Made by a program: the position numbers and the translations under genes. A DNA stretch of 59,170 nt. Origin: Candidatus Campbellbacteria bacterium. GTDB taxonomy: Bacteria; Patescibacteriota; Minisyncoccia; Phycocordibacterales; JAXHMZ01. The stretch spans positions 107,315 to 166,484 of the forward strand of contig JAXHMZ010000004.1 of assembly GCA_034521025.1 (NCBI GenBank). Reading direction: 5' to 3'. Below the pieces are notes generated by a model. It was given only the letters and a program-made list of their open reading frames with translations. It did no database searches and had not been told where the DNA came from. Shown here piece by piece: positions 1 through 9,252 of the stretch. The stretch's first letter is position 1, and every line of letters begins with the position of its first letter.

Positions 1-1
1 A

Positions 2-613
2 TTTATATTGGACGGCATACCCCCTGCACCACGAGGAGTTCCGCAAATTGAAGTAACATTTGATGTTGATGCTAACGGTATTTTGAACGTTAAGGCAGTA
101 GATAAATCAAGCGGTAAAGAGCAATCTATCCGCATTGAAGCTACTGCCGGACTAAGCGAAGAAGAAATTGAAAAAATGCGCGAGGATGCTGAAAAGCACG
201 CCGAGGAAGACGAGAAACGACAAAAATTGATAGAGGCCCAAAATGCGGCAGATCAACTAATCTACACTTCTGAGAAATCTCTGCAAGATAACAAAGATAC
301 ACTTTCTGAGGATCTCAAGAATTCGGTTCAAGAAAAGATCGATGAACTGAAAAAAGCCAAAGAAAGCGAAGACGCCTCGGAAATAGAGTCTAAAACACAA
401 GCGCTATCAACTGAGATCCAAAAGATTGGCGAACAAATGGCGCAGCAGCAACAGGCGCAAGCTGGCGGCGCATCTCAGGGAGAAGCAGGAGGAACTGAAG
501 AGCAAACAGGCGGATCTGAGAGTGAGGGAGAAACGAAAGATGCTGAAGTTAAAGAAGATGAAGACGATACGAGTAGCGAAAATAAAGACGAAGACCAAAA
601 CAAAAACTCTTAA
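2..613 (+). CDS. dnaK: Chaperone DnaK (Hsp70), C-terminal part; 5' truncated by window edge
   Basis: [28 protein letters not shown] substrate-binding domain motif, helical lid, acidic tail; upstream of dnaJ. Confidence 0.98.
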
Positions 614-635
614 AATCTAAATCTTTCGAGCAACC

Positions 636-1703
636 ATGGCAAAAGACTATTACAAAATTCTTGGAGTTGAGAAAAAAGCCTCGAAGGATGATATCAAAAA
701 AGCATTTCGGAAACTGGCACACAAGTACCACCCCGATAAAAAAGGAGGAGATGAGAATAAATTCAAGGAAGTGAGCGAGGCGTATTCTGTATTGTCTGAC
801 GACAAGAAGCGCGCTGAATACGATTCGTATGGACGTACGTTCAACGAGGCCGGTGGAGCCGGTGCCGGTGGTTTTGACTTTTCTGGCTTCCAGCAAGCCG
901 GAGGTCAAGGTTTTGATTTCCAGGATTTTGACTTTGGAGATATTTTCAACGAATTCTTTGGCGGTGGCGGTCGTCGACAAAAAAGAGGCCGAGATATATC
1001 CATTGATGTAGAGATAGATTTTAGAGATTCTGTCTTTGGCACAAAAAGAAAGGTCCTTTTGACCAAAACCTCTGTTTGTGACGTATGCCAGGGTTCCGGA
1101 GCAAAGAAGGGAACAAATATGAAAACCTGCGGGACTTGCCAAGGCGCAGGTAAAGTCAATGAAACTCGCAACTCTATCTTCGGTTCATTTACAACTGTGA
1201 GACCATGTACTGCTTGTAATGGAAGAGGAGAAGTTCCGGAAGAACCTTGTGGTACCTGTTCTGGTCAGGGTGTTGTTAATCGGCAAGAAGAAATAACTAT
1301 CGCTATACCTGCCGGCATTGAAGACGGACAAATGATCCGTATGGGAGGTATGGGTGAAGCCGTAGCCGGAGGAATACCCGGAGATCTTTATGTCAAGGTT
1401 CATGTGAGCAAGCACTCAACACTGAGAAAGCAGGGAGAAAATCTGGTGATGAATCTTAATGTCAAACTCACCGACGCTTTGCTCGGAGCAGAGTATAGTA
1501 TAGAGACCCTTGACGGCAACTTGAAACTAAAAATACCCGAGGGCACAAATTCAGGTGATACCTTGCGTGTGAAAGGCAAGGGAGTTGTAATTTCGGGCAA
1601 TAAACGCGGTGACCTGTTGGTCAAAATTCAAATCGATCATCCGAAGAAGTTATCCAGAAAAGCCAAAAAATTACTCAAAGAGCTACAAGACGAGGGAATA
1701 TAA
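636..1703 (+). CDS. dnaJ: Chaperone DnaJ
   Basis: J domain with HPD, G/F-rich region, four CxxCxGxG repeats. Confidence 0.99.
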
Positions 1704-1708
1704 AGAAG

Positions 1709-1744
1709 ATCAAAAGCCAGCTATTTATTATGCTGGCTTTTGAT
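1709..1744 (+). terminator. Intrinsic terminator after dnaJ
   Basis: ATCAAAAGCCAGC-loop-GCTGGCTTTTGAT inverted repeat. Confidence 0.8.
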
Positions 1745-1788
1745 TTATATACAGAAAGTATGGAACGTTGTATAGTAAAAAAAGTAAC

Positions 1789-2490
1789 ATGAAATTCTTA
1801 TACTCAGTTTTTCTCTTGATAGGTGGGTATTTAACTGTAGTAATACAATATTTAGTTAGACTTACTTCCAGGCCTTTATTTATTCTTTTTCTTCGTTTAG
1901 AAGTACGCGGCACAGAGAACATTCCCAAAGATGGGCAGGTAATTTTTGCTACAAATCATACTAGTAAATTTGATCCTTTCTTGCTTCAAACATCGCTGCC
2001 TTTATTTTCTAGACACATACCATTATTTTTCGTTACTAGGGAAAAAAGATTTTATACATCGGGGATCATAGAAAAACTGCTTTATGGAGGTTGGTTCTTT
2101 CGGCTTATTGGTGGATACCCGGCATATGAAGGAAAAAAGGATTATGCATATTCACTACGTGAACATATAAAAATATTAGAAAGCGGAAGAAGTACGTGTA
2201 TTTTCCCAGAAGGAGGTTTGGCAAAAAATGGCCACGAAGGAAAATATCGTGGAGGTGTCGGATACTTATCGTATGCAGCGAATACACCAGTATTACCAGT
2301 ATATATTAAAGGAATTGAAAATATCACATTTATTAAGTTTTTATTACGCAGAAGAAAGGTTAGAATTAGAATCGGTGAGCCTCTTCATTTTGGTTATGAA
2401 AACAATGAAGAGAATGACCAACCTGGTGTTTTTGCATTCAAGGATTTCGCAAGAAAAGTGGTCGAGGGAATATATAAAGAGAAAATATAG
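1789..2490 (+). CDS. PlsC/LPLAT-family lysophospholipid acyltransferase (ORF track start 1768; ATG 1789 more likely)
   Basis: NHTSKFD (HX4D) and FPEG motifs, PVLPVYI block, N-terminal hydrophobic segment. Confidence 0.88.
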   Translation: MKFLYSVFLLIGGYLTVVIQYLVRLTSRPLFILFLRLEVRGTENIPKDGQVIFATNHTSKFDPFLLQTSLPLFSRHIPLFFVTREKRFYTSGIIEKLLYGGWFFRLIGGYPAYEGKKDYAYSLREHIKILESGRSTCIFPEGGLAKNGHEGKYRGGVGYLSYAANTPVLPVYIKGIENITFIKFLLRRRKVRIRIGEPLHFGYENNEENDQPGVFAFKDFARKVVEGIYKEKI

Positions 2491-2634
2491 AGAGTATTTA
2501 TACTTAGTTACTACGTGAGGATATAAGGGAGTTTGATATTAAAGGGATGGACGACTTAGAAGAGGTGGGAAAAGTTGAGCTATAGTCAAGTTTTTGCTTT
2601 TGGTGTTATACTTTATAGAGAGTAAGATATAAGT

Positions 2635-4278
2635 GTGGTTATAGATTCTTGCATGAATGAAGAGGTAATTAGGAAAATTTTAGGGTTAAAATTAGATAAA
2701 AAGGTTTGTCTAACACCTTACGAAATGGCTAAGACCATTAAGGTGACTTTTTTTCCGTATGATAAAGAAAAAGTATCAAATAATGTTATCAAGTTTGCAG
2801 AAAAGATTGAGAGTCAGATAAAAGATATTGGTGTTGAAGTCGTACCCTATAATGAATCATTGTCCCACGTCTCTTTTTTAGAAAATCTAAAGAAAGTTAT
2901 AAAAATTACATTAAATAATATTTTTTTTATAATCTATTCATTGTTTAAAATTAATAAAAGAAGAGGGTATATACCATTTGTATCTATTAAAAGTATTTGG
3001 AAAAGAAATAGAATTCAAAAAAATATATCAATAATTTCATTAGGATCTCATCCAGAATGGAAGATGCCTGTGGATTATACGTCTAGTTTATCCGATAATC
3101 AGGTCATATCTATACTTGATTGGCCAAGTGAAATTACTGAAAGGTCATCTTTTGATGATCATTTTAATAAAGCAATGGAACTATTTGCTTTTAATATAAG
3201 TCATGTAGTTCTAGCTACAGATGGAAATAAATTTATCCTATACAATTTCAATCTAGCACATCCTGTTTATAGACTGAATGATAGAGAGGTTAAAGGAGCG
3301 CTTTTATGGGCTCTAATTCCAAAGTTAGCGGCCCCGATAATGCCACCAACACTAAGGGATTTTAAAATTGATAACAATTCTTTTTCTGTAGTAGGGAATA
3401 ATCAAGAAGAACATATTAATGATTTAGTAAACGGATCAAAAAAATTTTCAAAAACAAACCTATATCCTACTGGTAAGAAAGTAGATGATCTACCGTTTAG
3501 AAATGAATTTTATAAATGGATTGGAAAATTACATCTAGATCACAGAAGTGGAATGAGTTATGGTTTTTTGGCAAAACAGTTACCTATAAAGTTGAAAAAC
3601 CCTGAAAAAATTAACAAAGAACCCATAGAAAAAATTTATAAAGACGAAGATGGTTATTACCACGTTTATTTGAATATTAAAAATGAATGGTTTGATGTTA
3701 CTGTTCCGGATGTGTGGGTTTTAACACAAAGATCGGGTTCAGATAAAACTAAAATGGATCCGAAGAGCGATATTATTAAAATTGGTCTAGTGAAAGGTGA
3801 GAAGATAATTCAATTTCCTAAGAATGGTTTTAACTATAAAGAATCAAGACCATCGTTTGATACGAATGTAATTATTGCTCACGCTGTTGGTAACGGTATT
3901 ATTGCAAATTTATTACTCGGATTAGATAAAAGTTCTTATTTTTGTAAACAAGCATATAAAGGTGGTTTTTCCATCAGTCATTGGCATGGTTATTGGAATA
4001 AAAATAAAGTACCAAAAGGTTTACATATGCATGGAATGCAAAATCCACATGTATCTTGTTCATCTCCGCAGTCTGCAATTTACGCACTTCAAGGTAAATT
4101 ACAAACATTTATTAAAGCTTATGAAAATGGAGAAGAATACAAGGGTGACATCCATATAGAACCTCATCATGGAAGCAATGTAACATTCGAGTCAGTTACC
4201 GACCTTGCAGATATTATTTCCGAAGACCTAGAAATTACAAAATTGGGAAATCAATATTTAATAGATTATACTGTATAA
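2635..4278 (+). CDS. Hypothetical protein with C-terminal class II aldolase/adducin-like metal-binding domain (probable start ATG 2653)
   Basis: Ordered motifs GMSYGFLAK, LTQRSG..DII, RPSFD, SHWHG, PHVSCSS, EPHHG resemble the FucA/AraD-family pattern; AT-rich. Confidence 0.55.
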   Translation: MVIDSCMNEEVIRKILGLKLDKKVCLTPYEMAKTIKVTFFPYDKEKVSNNVIKFAEKIESQIKDIGVEVVPYNESLSHVSFLENLKKVIKITLNNIFFIIYSLFKINKRRGYIPFVSIKSIWKRNRIQKNISIISLGSHPEWKMPVDYTSSLSDNQVISILDWPSEITERSSFDDHFNKAMELFAFNISHVVLATDGNKFILYNFNLAHPVYRLNDREVKGALLWALIPKLAAPIMPPTLRDFKIDNNSFSVVGNNQEEHINDLVNGSKKFSKTNLYPTGKKVDDLPFRNEFYKWIGKLHLDHRSGMSYGFLAKQLPIKLKNPEKINKEPIEKIYKDEDGYYHVYLNIKNEWFDVTVPDVWVLTQRSGSDKTKMDPKSDIIKIGLVKGEKIIQFPKNGFNYKESRPSFDTNVIIAHAVGNGIIANLLLGLDKSSYFCKQAYKGGFSISHWHGYWNKNKVPKGLHMHGMQNPHVSCSSPQSAIYALQGKLQTFIKAYENGEEYKGDIHIEPHHGSNVTFESVTDLADIISEDLEITKLGNQYLIDYTV

Positions 4279-4297
4279 TAATATGTAGTGAGAAATT

Positions 4298-5908
4298 ATG
4301 GAGATTTACTTCAACTACTATAGCATATCCCTATTAATAGGAGCTTTTACTGCGTTATTGTCGGGCGTAATTGTATACATAAATGACAGAAAAAGATTGG
4401 AGAACCAGGCTTGGTTGGGTTTGACAATGAGCACAGCTTTATGGAGCACTTTTTATTTCTTGATGATAGTTTCCGTAGACAAACAGTTTGCTTTAGTAAG
4501 TAATATTATTTTACATGTAGGAGCTATTTTAATTCCTTTATTTTATTTACTTTTAGTAATTTTTATTACAAATACATATAAAAAACACAGACCTATTTTT
4601 TTAACAGCAGTAGTTGTCGGATTCCTATTTTTAATAATAAATCCTACTGAGTTATTTATTCGCGATGTAGTACCGAAATTTGTTTTTAATTTTGCTCCAG
4701 ACGCAGGGCCTTTATATTTTATATTTTTTCTATATTTTTCTTTATTAGTAATTTACGGATTAGTTATAATCGCCCGAACTTATGCTAAAGAAAATGTAGA
4801 AATAGAAAAGCAAAAGCTAAAATACGTTTTTATATTTACCATAGCCGCTGTTATAGGAGGAGGTAGTGTGTTCTTTTTAACATTTAATATTAATGTACCA
4901 CCATACCCACTCATTCTTTTTTCATTATATCCAGCGATAAGCGGTTACGCCATTTATAGATACCAGTTGTTCAATACAAAGCTTGTTGCTACACAATTGT
5001 TTACATTCATACTATGGATATTTATTCTAATTAGAATTCTATTTGCACAAAATACAGTCGACCAGATTTTCAACAGTACACTTTTATTACTTTCGGTAAT
5101 ATTTGGTTTATTAATAATCAAAAGTGTCATGCAAGAGATTGAATCTCGTGAGCGAATAGAAAAATTGGCAGAAGAATTGCGGGGCGCGAATGCAAAACTA
5201 CACAGGGTAAACATGCTTAAAACGGAGTTTGTGTCGGTTGCTACTCATCAGCTGCGAAGTCCTTTAACTGCGATAAAAGGATATACGTCGATGATACTAG
5301 AAGATACCTACGGTAAGGTTCCAAAGAAACTAAAGGAACCCCTCGAGAGAGTTTTTCGATCTACAGAATCTCTAACTCAAGTCGTGCAAGACTTTTTGGA
5401 TGTTTCTCGCATTGAACAAGGTAGTATGAATTATAATTTTGCCGCATTTGATTTTAAGGATCTTGTCACCGAAGTTGTAGAGGATCAAAAGCCCAACATT
5501 GAGAAATCTGGTCTTGAGGTTACGTTTGAAAAAGAAGAACACCCTGAAGAGAAGAACTATATCTTGCGCGGAGATAGACTGAAATTCAAACAGGTAATAA
5601 CCAATTTGATCGATAACGCGATCAAGTATACTAAAGAAGGCTTTATACGCATTTCATTAAGAAACAAAGATGGAAAAATACGTTTAGAGGTAGCTGATAG
5701 TGGAATGGGCATAAACGAGAAAACACTAAAAACTCTGTTCAAAAAATTTCATCGAGCCGACAACGCAGACGAAGTAAATGTTCAAGGAACAGGACTCGGT
5801 CTATATATCGCAAAACAGATCGTAGAAACACACAATGGCAAGATCTGGGCTGAATCAGACGGACTCGGCGAGGGCTCAACCTTTATAATAGAGCTTGATA
5901 ATAATTAA
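4298..5908 (+). CDS. Sensor histidine kinase with N-terminal multi-pass (7TM-type) sensor, HisKA and HATPase_c
   Basis: Many TM segments; H-box ATHQLRSPL, N-box DNAIKYT, G1 DSGMGI, G2 GTGLGL; no adjacent response regulator. Confidence 0.93.
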   Translation: MEIYFNYYSISLLIGAFTALLSGVIVYINDRKRLENQAWLGLTMSTALWSTFYFLMIVSVDKQFALVSNIILHVGAILIPLFYLLLVIFITNTYKKHRPIFLTAVVVGFLFLIINPTELFIRDVVPKFVFNFAPDAGPLYFIFFLYFSLLVIYGLVIIARTYAKENVEIEKQKLKYVFIFTIAAVIGGGSVFFLTFNINVPPYPLILFSLYPAISGYAIYRYQLFNTKLVATQLFTFILWIFILIRILFAQNTVDQIFNSTLLLLSVIFGLLIIKSVMQEIESRERIEKLAEELRGANAKLHRVNMLKTEFVSVATHQLRSPLTAIKGYTSMILEDTYGKVPKKLKEPLERVFRSTESLTQVVQDFLDVSRIEQGSMNYNFAAFDFKDLVTEVVEDQKPNIEKSGLEVTFEKEEHPEEKNYILRGDRLKFKQVITNLIDNAIKYTKEGFIRISLRNKDGKIRLEVADSGMGINEKTLKTLFKKFHRADNADEVNVQGTGLGLYIAKQIVETHNGKIWAESDGLGEGSTFIIELDNN

Positions 5909-5945
5909 AATTCGTTGTATTTTAACTAAGACGGACAAGGTTTGT

Positions 5946-6652
5946 ATGGATTATTCTGAGAAAATTAATAGAGCCATAGAGAAAGCCGCTCTATTACACA
6001 AAAACCAAGAGCGTCTGACTCCCGAGCGAATTCCGTATATCGCTCATATTTTTTGGTGTATATTCAGTTGTCTAAATACACCAACGATGAAGATGTGTTG
6101 GTAGCGGGTATACTTCACGACGTAATAGAAGACACCGAGTATAATCTTGAGGAACTCGAAAATGATTTTGGAGAGAATGTGTCTCGTATGGTTTACGGTG
6201 TTACAGAGCCAAAATTCGATAACGCGGGTAATAAGCTGTCGTGGAAGACAAGAAAGCAAGCCTATCTTGAAAATCTCAAAGAAGATTCAGAAGGGAGCAT
6301 GCTTATTTGTGTAGCAGATAAAATATGTAATCTGCGTTCTCTTGCAAAAGATCATAGCGTTTACGATGAAGATCTGTGGGAAATGTTGACCGCAAGTTAC
6401 GAGTACAAGATGTGGTACCACAAGCAAGTTGTAGAAATACTTGAAAATAGGATTAGTAACAAAGTGGCTCTCTATGATCTCAAACACACCTTGGATAACA
6501 CAAAAGTTGAGATAGAAGGGCAGGAAAATAGTGAAAAATATTATGGTTTTAATAGATATCCGCGCTTTGTAGTAAACGCTCTAAATTCGTTGCGCCTAAG
6601 CGATTTGTTTGCTAGAATCCTCAGGTATGGAAAAAGAAACACCACAAATTAA
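5946..6652 (+). CDS. HD-domain hydrolase, RelA/SpoT-hydrolase (Mesh1/SAH)-like; split by a 1-nt frameshift at the T-run ~6047-6052
   Basis: Joins ORF 5895-6104 (MDYSEKINRAIEKAALLH..PYIAH) and 6053-6652 (AGILHDVIEDT..VADKICN). Confidence 0.8.
6590..6618 (+). promoter_or_regulatory. Putative sigma70 promoter for rpsB inside 3' end of HD gene
   Basis: TTGCGC-17bp-TAGAAT with TG extension; ATG 8 nt downstream. Confidence 0.6.
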
Positions 6653-7325
6653 CAAGGCCGCCGTAGAAGACCTATTCAAGGTTGGCGCGCACTATGGATA
6701 CGTAAAACGATTGCGTCATCCTTCAGTTATGCCCTTTTTGTTTGGTACAAAGAATAATATAGAGATATTTGATCTAGAGAAAACGTACCAAGCTCTCGAA
6801 GAAGCTAAATCATATGTTTCTGGGTTAGCCCAGAAAGGCAAAATGATCTTATTTGTATCCGGCAAAGCTGAAGGAAAGGAAGCGATAAAGAAAGCGGCTG
6901 AGTCGATTCAGATGCCGTATGTAAACGGGCGCTGGAAAGGTGGTACTCTTACTAACTTTGAAGAAATTCGAAAAAGAGTTAAAAAACTTGAAGAATTAGT
7001 AGAAAAAAGGGAAGCTGGTGAGCTGGGAAAATATACTAAAAAAGAAAGGCTACTTATAGATCGTGAAATTAATTCTCTCGAAGAAGGGTTTGCGGGTCTG
7101 ACTCAGATGACACGACTACCCGATGCGATTTATATAGTAGATGTGGCTCACGAGGAAATCGCATTGAGTGAAGCTAGAACGCTTGGTATTCCAGTAATTA
7201 GTCTTTCAAATTCAGACTGCGATTTCTCAAAAATTGACTATCCGATTCCGGGTAACGACGCTAATTTGCACAGCATTACTTACTTCACAAGTCAGATAGC
7301 TGAAGCGTATAAACAAGCTCAGTAG
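6627..7325 (+). CDS. rpsB: 30S ribosomal protein S2 (true start likely ATG 6627)
   Basis: GAHYG, IFDLEKT, GGTLTNF, IPGNDAN motifs; followed by tsf. Confidence 0.98.
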   Translation: MEKETPQINKAAVEDLFKVGAHYGYVKRLRHPSVMPFLFGTKNNIEIFDLEKTYQALEEAKSYVSGLAQKGKMILFVSGKAEGKEAIKKAAESIQMPYVNGRWKGGTLTNFEEIRKRVKKLEELVEKREAGELGKYTKKERLLIDREINSLEEGFAGLTQMTRLPDAIYIVDVAHEEIALSEARTLGIPVISLSNSDCDFSKIDYPIPGNDANLHSITYFTSQIAEAYKQAQ

Positions 7326-7360
7326 AATTATAATTTAACTGTTTATTAAGAAGAGATTTT

Positions 7361-7948
7361 ATGGCGACAACTGAGGAAATAAAAACATTACGAGAAAAGA
7401 CGGGTATTTCTGTGATGCAATGCAAAAAAGCCCTTGAAGAGGCAGGAGGAGACATGGATAAAGCCCTTATAATTCTCACAAAGAAGTCTGGTGATATAGT
7501 CTCAAAAAAGAGCGATAGAGAGCTCGGAGCAGGAGTTATAAAGGCGTATATACACGGAGGAGGAACTGTTGGAGCAATGGTGGAGCTTGATTCCGAGACT
7601 GACTTTGTCGCTAAACACGAAGATTTTGGCAAACTGGCATATGACATAGCAATGCATATAGCTGCCCAAAAGCCCACTTATCTCTCCCGAGAAGACGTGA
7701 AAGATGAAGATCTGGTAAAGGCAAAAGAGGTGTTCCAAGAAGAAGTGAAGGACAAACCTGAAGAGATGCAAGAAAAGATCCTTGAAGGCAAGATAGATTC
7801 ATACCTAAAAGAAAGGATATTGTTAGAGCAACCCTTTATCAAGGATATGGAAAAGACAGTCGGTGATCTTGTGAGTGAAGCTACGCAAAAATTCGGTGAA
7901 AAGGTAAAAATTGCCCGATACGAATGCTTTACGGTTCTTGGTGAATAA
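7361..7948 (+). CDS. tsf: Elongation factor Ts (short form)
   Basis: LREKTGISVMQCKKALEE and ETDFVAK motifs. Confidence 0.98.
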   Translation: MATTEEIKTLREKTGISVMQCKKALEEAGGDMDKALIILTKKSGDIVSKKSDRELGAGVIKAYIHGGGTVGAMVELDSETDFVAKHEDFGKLAYDIAMHIAAQKPTYLSREDVKDEDLVKAKEVFQEEVKDKPEEMQEKILEGKIDSYLKERILLEQPFIKDMEKTVGDLVSEATQKFGEKVKIARYECFTVLGE

Positions 7949-7972
7949 TTTATAATCGCTTTGAAATAGCGC

Positions 7973-7991
7973 GCCACCTTAGCTCAGTTGG
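7973..7991 (+). repeat. 19-bp copy of the tRNA-Thr 5' end
   Basis: GCCACCTTAGCTCAGTTGG identical to 8171-8189. Confidence 0.95.
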
Positions 7992-8170
7992 ATAAAACAG
8001 AAACTGCTTTCTGTTTTATCCGGTCCCGAACGCAGAGAGGGAACTTCCGTTGTTGAGCGCAGCGAAACAGGAAGTAGGAGGAAGAGTTTACTCTAGCGAC
8101 TGAGCGAATGTGATAAAATGTCCTAAGAAATATTGCATTAAACGGTTCGTACGATTAGAGTCAGAGTTGT
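7992..8170. mobile_element. Putative non-coding hairpin mini-element at the tRNA-Thr 5' end
   Basis: Bounded by 19-bp tRNA direct repeat; perfect 14-bp hairpin 7990-8021; stem-loops with GAACGCAGAGA (8028-8038) and GAGCGCAGCGA (8055-8065) loops. Confidence 0.55.
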
Positions 8171-8243
8171 GCCACCTTAGCTCAGTTGGTAGAGCATTCG
8201 CTTTGTAAGCGAGCGGTCGTCAGTTCGAGTCTGACAGGTGGCT
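8171..8243 (+). tRNA. tRNA-Thr (anticodon TGT), CCA not encoded
   Basis: Acceptor GCCACCT/AGGTGGC, D arm AGCTCAGTTGGTAGAGC, anticodon arm TTCGC-TTTGTAA-GCGAG, T arm GTCAG-TTCGAGT-CTGAC. Confidence 0.97.
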
Positions 8244-8244
8244 C

Positions 8245-8361
8245 ACGTAGTGAGGCAACAGAAAAAGCTCATTTATGAGCTTTTGTTCAGACGAGAAAAG
8301 TTTGAGCATGTCGTGCGGAGCGCAGCGAGCACGACGCGAAAACTATACAGAATCTGTAGGA
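8245..8361. mobile_element. Putative non-coding hairpin mini-element at the tRNA-Thr 3' end
   Basis: Bounded by 21-bp tRNA direct repeat; hairpins AAAAGCTCA-TTTA-TGAGCTTTT and GTCGTGC-(G)GAGCGCAGCGA-GCACGAC. Confidence 0.55.
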
Positions 8362-8384
8362 TTCGAGTCTGACAGGTGGCTCCA
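8362..8384 (+). repeat. Copy of the tRNA-Thr 3' end (att-like), ending in CCA
   Basis: TTCGAGTCTGACAGGTGGCTC identical to 8224-8244, followed by CA. Confidence 0.95.
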
Positions 8385-8404
8385 AAAGCCAAGTAAGATC
8401 ATAA

Positions 8405-8442
8405 AAATAAACGCTTCAATCTATAGATTGAAGCGTTTATTT
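8405..8442. repeat. 38-bp perfect palindrome with GCTTCAATCTATAGATTGAAGC core (terminator/REP-like)
   Basis: Perfect inverted repeat; the 22-bp core recurs at 30352-30373. Confidence 0.9.
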
Positions 8443-8511
8443 CGTCTGAATATACGTTCAATCATAAATATACATTTATTTTTTTGCTTGTTTTGTATAT
8501 AATCGTTAGGT

Positions 8512-9252
8512 ATGCAAGAAAATGAGCATAATACAAAAGGACATCTCCATCCTTTTACTATCCTTTCGCGCAAATCTATAGATATATTAACAAAACTCGG
8601 TTTTGAAGTAGCTAGCGGACCAGAATTGGAATCCGAAGAATACAACTTTGACAAACTGAATGTGCCCAAAGATCATCCCTCGCGCGATATGCAAGATACT
8701 TTTTGGATCAAAGGAAGACCGGATCATGTTCTGCGTACTCACACATCTCCTGTGCAGGTTCGTTACATGCTTGAAAACGATCCGCCGTTGAAAGCGATCA
8801 CTATCGGTAGGGTTTATAGGAACGAGGCGACTGACGCGACGCACGAGGCTCAGTTTTACCAACTGGAGGGTCTGAGCGTGGCTGAAGGAGTAACTCTGGC
8901 GGATTTAAAGGCAACACTGAAATACTTTTTTGGCGAGCTCTTTGGTAATGATACAGAGGTGCGATTTCGTCCCAGCTTCTTTCCGTTTGTGGAACCGGGA
9001 GTAGAAGTAGATGTACGTTGTTTTAAATGTGTTGGTGCGGGCTGTGGACTTTGTAAGCACACAGGTTGGATCGAAATTATGGGCGCGGGTATGGTCCATC
9101 CAAATGTACTCGAAGCATCCGGAGTCGATTCTTCTAAATACACCGGCTTTGCATTCGGCGCCGGCTTTGATCGTATAGCTTCTTCTATTTTTCAAGTTCC
9201 GGATATAAGGTTGTTTTATTCAGCCGACTTGCGTTTTATTAATCAGTTTTAA
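8512..9252 (+). CDS. pheS: Phenylalanine-tRNA ligase alpha subunit (lacks N-terminal arm)
   Basis: HPSRDMQDTF, LRTHTSPVQ, RPSFFPFVEP, GFAFGAGFDR motifs. Confidence 0.98.
   Translation: MQENEHNTKGHLHPFTILSRKSIDILTKLGFEVASGPELESEEYNFDKLNVPKDHPSRDMQDTFWIKGRPDHVLRTHTSPVQVRYMLENDPPLKAITIGRVYRNEATDATHEAQFYQLEGLSVAEGVTLADLKATLKYFFGELFGNDTEVRFRPSFFPFVEPGVEVDVRCFKCVGAGCGLCKHTGWIEIMGAGMVHPNVLEASGVDSSKYTGFAFGAGFDRIASSIFQVPDIRLFYSADLRFINQF

Follow-up and report, generated by a model that had tools for sequence, protein, structure and literature searches.

What is encoded by the three low-GC genes that lie directly downstream of dnaJ in the genome of a Candidatus Campbellbacteria bacterium, and in what sense do they form a system? 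We analysed a window (the whole stretch of DNA considered here) of 59,170 nucleotides, positions 107,315 to 166,484 of contig JAXHMZ010000004.1 in assembly GCA_034521025.1, that is, C4:107315-166484 of the genome, which we call G000. The end of dnaK opens the window, followed by dnaJ (636-1703) and, 3′ of it, by three co-oriented genes encoding a PlsC/LPLAT (lysophospholipid acyltransferase)-type acyltransferase, hereafter AT, a 547-aa protein, hereafter X547, and a histidine kinase with a seven-transmembrane (7TM) sensor of the HisKA_7TM family. An initial annotation, made from the sequence alone, had proposed three co-oriented accessory genes between dnaJ and an HD gene, an arrangement that the open reading frames (ORFs) confirmed, and had read them as an acquired module that makes and senses a lipid or small molecule. 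We find that AT, X547 and the kinase are supported as a repeatedly linked module, and we tentatively interpret the locus as an enzyme and intramembrane-sensor unit that would act on or monitor membrane-lipid chemistry together with the LPLAT-type acyltransferase. Such an enzyme-sensor pair, as a system for modifying or monitoring membrane lipids, is probably undescribed so far.

We characterized the linkage in 66 non-redundant loci of the CPR (candidate phyla radiation) type drawn from GTDB genomes. A 7TM kinase lies directly 3′ of X547 in 61 of the 62 CPR loci with enough sequence, at gaps of −59 to +23 nt that are mostly below 10 nt. Of 56 loci, 29 have AT directly 5′ of X547 and 44 have it within 6 kb, while dnaJ occurs within 1.5 kb upstream in 12 of the 56, scattered over the whole X547 tree. 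The order dnaJ-AT-X547-kinase recurs across this entire tree; the wider flanks otherwise vary between loci. At the level of whole genomes, every one of the order's 18 X547-positive genomes carried a PF01553 gene (17 exactly one), compared with 19 of 58 negatives (Fisher's test, P = 1.4 × 10−7). The repeated neighbourhood that the initial annotation had expected was therefore found, with the kinase almost always following X547 and AT usually nearby.

The kinase is also paired with an upstream enzyme gene where X547 is lacking. HisKA_7TM kinases were found in 30 of 61 relatives, and in those without X547 an enzyme gene again lies directly 5′ of the kinase, often after AT and dnaJ, giving the frame dnaJ-(AT)-[enzyme]-7TM kinase in same-order genomes. 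The X547 position is occupied by an AAR/PigE-N-type acyl-thioester reductase in 7 cases (TIGR04058, 1 × 10−16 to 1 × 10−31; PigE, 1 × 10−39 to 1 × 10−44), by a Methyltransf_20-type methyltransferase in 6 and by an HAD-IB hydrolase in 3; the few others comprise a ThiF-like protein, an amidohydrolase, an acetoacetate-decarboxylase (ADC)-like protein with an aminotransferase, and proteins of no recognised family. The nearest families of the sister-genome reductases are the cyanobacterial acyl-carrier-protein (acyl-ACP) reductase (TIGR04058) and the N-terminal reductase of PigE, which handle acyl thioesters, as do the partners of distant X547 homologues; the cassette reductases themselves have no sequence relation to X547 and score below the family cut-offs.

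To place the sensors relative to these partners, we used a tree of 83 sensor domains labelled by partner enzyme. All 60 X547-linked sensors, together with the 7TM-GAF-HD sensor of locus L117, formed one clade (SH-aLRT, the Shimodaira–Hasegawa-like approximate likelihood ratio test, 98), the HAD-linked sensors formed another (99), and the methyltransferase-linked (5 of 6) and reductase-linked sensors each clustered. The labels change 10 times over the tree, the minimum possible, against a mean of 22.7 for shuffled labels (0 of 200 shuffles as low). A subfamily of X547 of ~507 aa is followed by an overlapping gene for a HisKA_7TM-GAF-HD protein, whose sensor is nested in the X547 clade; since this variant keeps the X547 pairing, it is the sensor domain to which X547 is coupled, and not the kinase output. 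Among 14 dnaJ-adjacent loci, whose pairs are not independent, X547 identity correlated with kinase identity at rho = +0.35 and with dnaJ identity at rho = −0.28, as would result if enzyme-sensor units were exchanged at a fixed locus, although this is only suggestive. We infer that cassettes have been exchanged at the dnaJ locus; ancient paralogy with differential loss is a possible alternative. A fifth cassette type was seen in L097 (1507-3506, genome G411), where the genes before the kinase encode a class I/II aminotransferase, perhaps alpha-oxoamine-synthase-like, and the acetoacetate-decarboxylase-like protein; its sensor is sister to the X547 clade.

The connection to lipids comes from the genes beside X547 and its distant homologues. 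In L134, a homologue bearing a TubC_N docking domain immediately follows a fatty acyl-AMP ligase (FAAL); others of this type come directly after a FAAL-ACP didomain in L135 and directly after a PfaC-like ketosynthase/chain-length factor (KS/CLF), PfaD (TIGR02814, 672 bits) and an ACP in L120, and another homologue precedes a fatty-acid desaturase. These contexts, the acyltransferase in the cassette itself and the alternative cassette enzymes together support a lipid link, as judged from gene content. The make-and-sense idea is partly supported: the linkage is strong (X547 followed by the kinase in 61/62, an AT in 18/18), while the making of a lipid and its sensing by the kinase are putative. 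Sulfotransferase genes also occur near X547 homologues, in L061 (4863-5915, an archaeon) and in L071 (2364-3218, Chitinophagales).

The host genome gives this link a particular setting. Genome G000 (96.6% complete) had no PF00550 and no PF00501 match, and phmmer with E. coli queries recovered no homologue of PlsX, FabH, FabD, FabF, AcpP, CdsA or UppS, while finding the positive controls Frr, Tmk, MltG and RseP. This gene content agrees with the inability of CPR bacteria to synthesise membrane lipids, and their enrichment in lysolipids, that have been reported (PMC7242380).

Which protein, then, occupies the enzyme position here? The X547 ORF spans 2635-4278 and the kinase ORF 4298-5908, and the cassette and its upstream edge divide as follows.

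1707-1746, + strand: hairpin terminator after dnaJ (15-bp stem, ΔG −24.2 kcal/mol, z −6.1 versus shuffles, U-rich tract 3′)
1768-2490, + strand: AT, 240 aa, with a TTG start and an ATG at 1789
2491-2634, + strand: AT-X547 spacer of 144 nt, without ORF or Rfam match
2635-3504, + strand: N-terminal alpha/beta domain of X547 (~residues 1-290), of the Rossmann-like fold class
3505-4278, + strand: C-terminal domain of X547 (~residues 291-547), resembling class II aldolases and carrying a putative site for metal and phosphate
4298-5137, + strand: sensor domain of the kinase, comprising the HisKA_7TM bundle, a beta-hairpin and two further hydrophobic helices
5138-5908, + strand: cytoplasmic transmitter of the kinase (HisKA, residues 308-375; HATPase_c, residues 425-534)

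X547 yielded no Pfam, NCBIfam or PDB sequence match, whether searched as a single sequence, as a 40-sequence profile or through each of the 40 members. Its family is small, with 559 clusters at 90% identity in a word-indexed search and, in a search of 1.84 billion proteins, 217 representatives at 50% identity, and the closest homologue is 49% identical. The AlphaFold 2 (AF2) model, built from a 40-sequence alignment, has a predicted local distance difference test score (pLDDT) of 91 and a predicted TM score (pTM) of 0.91. When compared by Foldseek, the C-terminal domain has as its best PDB match the E. coli rhamnulose-1-phosphate aldolase RhaD (probability 0.99, E = 8 × 10−3), with RhaD entries 2v9i, 2v9o and 2v2a at probabilities of 0.97-0.99 and the class II aldolase domain 3m4r also matched. 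The cryptic aldolase fold of the initial annotation fits this result, RhaD being the top match at a TM score of 0.47 on the target. The N-terminal domain gave only low-probability matches (PfkB, SIS, flavodoxin-like, HDAC8). The one hydrophobic stretch in the hydropathy profile is a buried helix in the model, and X547 is predicted to be soluble, with no transmembrane segment. The N-terminal domain was also considered as a cryptic receiver, with D162 after a strand as the phospho-Asp; this was rejected, as the positions of the acidic pocket, Thr and Lys do not fit.

Conservation within the family outlines a candidate active site. Among 29 diverse homologues, N206 and P237 are invariant in the N-terminal domain, as are, further along, R304, G306, S308, G310, P358, S367, G368 and K371, then D379, S407, D409, H449 and H451, and finally G467, C475, E509, H512 and G513; distant homologues keep all invariant residues. 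These residues fall into an ordered series consisting of a G-x-S loop, an S-G-x-x-K loop, a PS.D motif with a helix after it, a strand that closes with H.H, another helix, a strand finishing in HHG and then a further strand and helix. By our own mapping, this order of motifs and predicted secondary structure is the same in FucA and RhaD, and the 61-residue spacing between H451 and H512 equals that between H94 and H155 of FucA, which we take to be zinc ligands. With their invariance and FucA-like spacing, H449, H451, H512 and D409 are thus candidates for a three-His metal site with an acid. X547 nevertheless differs from the class II aldolases (PF00596; E. coli RhaD, FucA and AraD) in several respects: it has no sequence-profile similarity to them, it carries an extra N-terminal domain of ~290 aa and additional invariant Cys and Glu residues, its PS.D-to-H.H gap is 40 residues rather than ~20, and its gene contexts are lipid and carrier-protein genes rather than sugar catabolism.

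AT is the most readily classified of the three proteins. It matches PF01553 at 2.3 × 10−17 (63.5 bits, cut-off 23), and its translation contains both the HX4D (NHTSKFD) and FPEG (CIFPEGG) motifs, so the earlier acyltransferase call, which was made on these motifs, stands. It is the sole PF01553 gene in the genome and carries one N-terminal hydrophobic helix. In these features, and in having as its best NCBIfam matches the acyltransferase domain of Aas-type acyl-ACP:phospholipid acyltransferases, it resembles the Aas/PlsC lysophospholipid acyltransferases; it differs in that it falls below the equivalog cut-off for PlsC proper, the 1-acyl-glycerol-3-phosphate acyltransferase (TIGR00530, 47.4 bits against 102.95), and in that the host genome has neither ACP nor acyl-ACP synthetase. 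As the genome encodes no ACP or AMP-binding ligase, gene content does not identify the acyl donor of this single AT; a coenzyme A-independent transacylase of the tafazzin kind would fit.

The third protein matches PF16927 (1.5 × 10−16, 61.3 bits), PF00512 (2.9 × 10−16, 59.7 bits) and PF02518 (3.6 × 10−28, 98.6 bits), all above the cut-offs, and its H-box reads ATHQLRSPL. The AF2 model of the sensor (pLDDT 89, pTM 0.84) is a 7-helix bundle in which helices 4 and 5 are separated by a highly conserved beta-hairpin (residues 121-136); ahead of the coiled coil come two more hydrophobic helices, giving ~9 hydrophobic segments in all by hydropathy. Foldseek with the sensor returned only the 7TM bundles of G-protein-coupled receptors (GPCRs), at TM scores of ~0.5, a resemblance that, as far as a model goes, is one of generic receptor-like architecture and not evidence of homology. 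Invariant sensor residues include W49, Y53, H73, P80, K127, G137, G187 and G188, of which the aromatic residues and histidine W49, Y53 and H73 are positioned inside the modelled bundle. A divergent second HisKA_7TM-like kinase stands beside the pair in L027, L033, L034, L040, L045, L046, L049, L055 and L096, mostly directly 5′ of X547 on the opposite strand and, in L096, 3′ of the kinase on the same strand.

No receiver adjoins the cassette kinase, as it would in a classical two-component system, nor do the called genes of two related loci, L001 and L002, include one within 6 kb. Besides its two kinases, the genome encodes one single-domain receiver, which lies at C4:57714-58049 beside the other, PAS-type kinase and ~54 kb from the cassette. 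The earlier description as an orphan 7TM kinase therefore fits in both of its parts. That second system (C4:56993-58049; L076/L078) consists of a stand-alone CheY-like receiver with no output domain and an adjoining cytoplasmic PAS-type kinase, with uvrA next.

In its N-terminal domain, which exceeds the Pfam cut-off, and its complete HisKA/HATPase_c core the protein is a regular HisKA_7TM kinase, but it differs in having no adjacent receiver, in being gene-coupled to an enzyme and in belonging to sensor clades that follow the class of that enzyme. In the literature searched, the HisKA_7TM family appears in domain censuses only, with no ligand or partner described. Kinases of the DesK and BceS/LiaS types, which have almost no extracytoplasmic domain, read the state of the membrane or depend on a partner: DesK controls a lipid desaturase, and BceS relies on its gene-linked partner BceAB for sensing. 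Any likeness of the cassette kinase to these systems would serve as a working analogy only. In these systems the transmembrane helices number 2-5, a response regulator is encoded alongside and the partner is either a transporter or a target gene under regulation, and we know of no such system with a translationally coupled soluble enzyme.

From these elements a tentative mechanism can be assembled. The frame dnaK-dnaJ-(acyltransferase)-[enzyme]-[HisKA_7TM sensor] would hold an enzyme-plus-sensor cassette in which X547 is a soluble two-domain enzyme, presumably using a metal for catalysis, whose C-terminal aldolase-type fold would place the invariant His/His/His(Glu,Cys)/Asp cluster beside Ser/Gly/Lys/Arg loops suited to a phosphate. 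Its substrate may be an activated fatty-acyl or phospholipid precursor, and it would act alongside the neighbouring LPLAT-type AT in a host in which fatty-acid synthase, ACP, PlsX, CdsA and acyl-activating ligases all went undetected. The kinase, whose helical bundle is receptor-like and leaves hardly any soluble part for sensing, could read an in-membrane lipid made or consumed by the enzyme, or else the state of the enzyme itself. With no receiver gene next to the kinase, phosphotransfer would then carry the signal to a partner encoded at a distance.

Several observations weigh against this interpretation. On the side of the enzyme, the RhaD match has a TM score of 0.26 on the query against 0.47 on the target, with a root-mean-square deviation of ~9 Å over the full-length model; the PF00596 profile matched none of the 40 X547 members even at E ≤ 5; and hhalign of X547 against E. 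coli RhaD, FucA and AraD gave probabilities of 0.7-3.7%, which are not significant, and favoured a register that conflicts with our motif mapping. The aldolase link is accordingly a moderate one, a single Foldseek match that sequence profiles do not confirm. On the side of the pairing, adjacency tells that X547 and the kinase are coupled but not in which direction. Archaeal, Bacteroidota and other non-CPR homologues of X547 have neither kinase nor AT nearby, and some 7TM kinases of relatives follow a ThiF-like protein, an amidohydrolase or SecF, with no evident lipid link. The beta-hairpin, which is the most conserved element of the sensor, is predicted by the positive-inside rule to face outward, away from a cytoplasmic X547. 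Finally, the substrate to which the distant homologues point cannot apply here, since this CPR genome encodes neither ACP nor acyl-AMP ligase.

A fuller version of the interpretation can be stated, which we regard as quite improbable. X547 would be a new class of metal-dependent enzyme that couples an activated fatty-acyl group to a phosphorylated C3 unit of the dihydroxyacetone phosphate (DHAP) type, bound in its aldolase-like metal site. Together with the LPLAT, it would provide a non-canonical route to phosphatidate-like lipids in some CPR lacking fatty-acid synthase and ACP, the GPCR-like bundle being the receptor of the product. The enzyme-receptor pairs (reductase, methyltransferase, phosphatase and X547) would be swapped as units at dnaJ, as a toolkit for lipid editing and lipid sensing.

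The enzyme-and-sensor interpretation touches two open questions, namely how CPR/Patescibacteria build and control a membrane without fatty-acid or phospholipid synthesis and what the ligands of the widespread HisKA_7TM sensors are. The locus offers a handle on both, as it holds an unannotated enzyme family with a candidate active site and with contexts tied to activated fatty acids, and a receptor-like sensor whose phylogeny tracks its partner enzyme. The apparent swapping of pairs, in four cassette types, within a fixed dnaJ frame suggests a general rule whereby the partner enzyme may predict the ligand of the sensor.

We weighed three other explanations against this one. X547 might not be a metabolic enzyme but a subunit that serves the 7TM sensor from the cytoplasm, as its input or as an accessory. 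It would act as a ligand- or metal-binding pseudo-enzyme or co-sensor, much like the accessory proteins known for intramembrane-sensing kinases, and AT would be an unrelated housekeeping gene. The near-obligate adjacency of X547 and the kinase, their co-divergence (the identity correlation of +0.35 given above), the survival of the pairing when the output domain changes and a sensor without a soluble input domain of its own would all be expected, and adducin is a case in which the aldolase fold has a non-catalytic role. We nonetheless consider this unlikely, since homologues lacking a sensor, from archaea and from the FAAL and PfaD contexts, retain the invariant His/Asp/Cys/Glu cluster and the phosphate-type loops, a pattern that points to catalysis independent of the sensor. 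Moreover, the swap partners in relatives are ordinary enzymes, and AT accompanies X547 in every X547-positive genome of the order.

Alternatively, X547 could act on sugar phosphates in carbon or nucleotide-sugar metabolism, as an aldolase, epimerase or dehydratase of a pathway regulated by the kinase, with the lipid associations being coincidental. Most enzymes of the class II aldolase fold belong to carbon or nucleotide-sugar metabolism, RhaD is the best structural match, and the invariant Ser/Gly/Lys/Arg loops would suit a phosphate ester. There are also phosphatases in two neighbourhoods: a 491-aa homologue in L132 (GCA_000402175.1, 184-7875) is followed by an HAD_2 phosphatase, and a fructose bisphosphatase (FBPase) lies near the L060 homologue. 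However, genes for fatty-acyl activation or carriage precede all three docking-domain homologues, others stand beside a desaturase or an AT, and no recurrent sugar kinase, isomerase or transporter was found in the CPR loci examined, so we hold this explanation to be rather improbable.

The last alternative is that the cassette is an accessory island for conflict or host interaction (defence, competition or host-surface sensing), recently imported from a donor of lower GC. Base composition gives it a starting point. GC is 0.25-0.36 at ~1650-5100 compared with 0.42-0.47 in the flanks (300-nt windows), returning to ~0.38-0.40 across the kinase transmitter (5138-5908). At third codon positions (GC3), AT has 0.253, X547 0.208 and the kinase 0.307 against a genome mean of 0.423 ± 0.068, which places them at the 0.6th, 0th and 2.2th percentiles of the 649 ORFs that a crude, longest-ORF greedy calling yields for this genome of 686 kb and GC 0.434; X547 has both the lowest GC (0.302) and the lowest GC3 of all. 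Given these GC3 extremes, the dip is not an effect of amino-acid composition, and the low GC relative to the flanks that the initial annotation had counted by hand persists after that correction.

The distribution of the module is likewise patchy. X547 was found in 2 of 401 genomes sampled evenly across the phylum (0.5%) and in 18 of 401 genomes of the order (4.5%), representing 14 of 223 genera and about a dozen families, where absences depend on a loose first-pass screen. Two independent searches concur on this rarity, with 72 loci in 185,579 species and the 217 clusters at 50% identity noted above. Within the order, at least four genera each have the module in two of their sampled species. 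Three X547 matches in the order, in G580, G647 and G774, each contain one in-frame TAA and could be pseudogenes or alignment run-over. A same-genus genome, G401, was considered as an 'empty site' and discarded; it lacks X547 but also dnaJ, indicating an assembly gap.

Deviant composition and patchy occurrence, as in a horizontally acquired island, are thus present, together with alternative cassettes at one fixed locus and a divergence that does not track the flanking dnaJ. The integrases that flank the L132 homologue and the outward conserved hairpin of the sensor model, which could read an external or host cue, might be added. The genes and junctions of a mobile island are missing here: window 1-9000 holds no integrase or transposase ORF, the Rfam scan of the same interval returned only a tRNA, at 8171, which is the nearest one, and the repeats bounding the cassette are chance AT-rich matches. 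Low GC3 is also weakened as proof of recent import, as in 49 of 59 other loci the X547 homologue falls below the genes around it (median −0.086, Wilcoxon P = 5 × 10−8), a depression not seen in the other cassette types; it is a trait of the X547 family and not evidence for a single recent import. Of the claim that the cassette was acquired, the patchy occurrence, the compositional extreme and the divergence from dnaJ therefore stand, while the recurrent GC3, the gene order kept across the whole X547 tree and the lack of mobility signatures speak against it; an acquired origin is plausible but unproven. As for conflict, PADLOC has no match for X547 or AT and reaches the kinase through its generic ATPase domain only, so that no known anti-phage defence family was recognised. 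With no defence family, no mobility signature, a GC3 shared by the family, a nearest homologue at only 49% identity and recurrence within genera, a recently imported conflict island is very improbable.

Composition varies among the more distant copies of X547. In L061, a Thermoplasmatales metagenome-assembled genome (MAG), the homologue at 5974-7689 has a GC3 of 0.43 against 0.73 in its neighbours, which suggests transfer into that archaeon; the Thermoplasmata copies L058 and L059 have GC3 values of 0.94 and 0.80, at or above those of their neighbours. In L132, the X547 homologue, the HAD_2 phosphatase and three other genes lie between two phage-type integrase genes, and this segment may be a mobile element carrying an X547-type enzyme.

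The remaining features concern the edges and internal signals of the cassette. The hairpin at 1707-1746, which the promoter and terminator scan missed and folding detected, closes dnaJ and marks the upstream edge. The 144-nt spacer between AT and X547 possibly holds an internal promoter, the promoter-like matches in it being at chance level in the same scan; no small conserved ORF, such as one for an ACP, was found between AT and X547 in loci with long spacers. The true start of X547 is likely the ATG at 2653, judging from the 541-aa protein it gives, which has the length of the database copy P0001. The span of 1745-5150 first assigned to the cassette takes in, at its end, only the AT-rich membrane part of the kinase. 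Downstream, the cassette is bounded by an HD_4 (SpoT-hydrolase-like) gene at 5946-6652, which is followed by rpsB, tsf, the tRNA and pheS. This HD_4 gene is read as two overlapping ORFs (5946-6104 and 6053-6652), with a frameshift at a T-run (6049-6054) that is either an assembly or homopolymer error or the mark of a real pseudogene.

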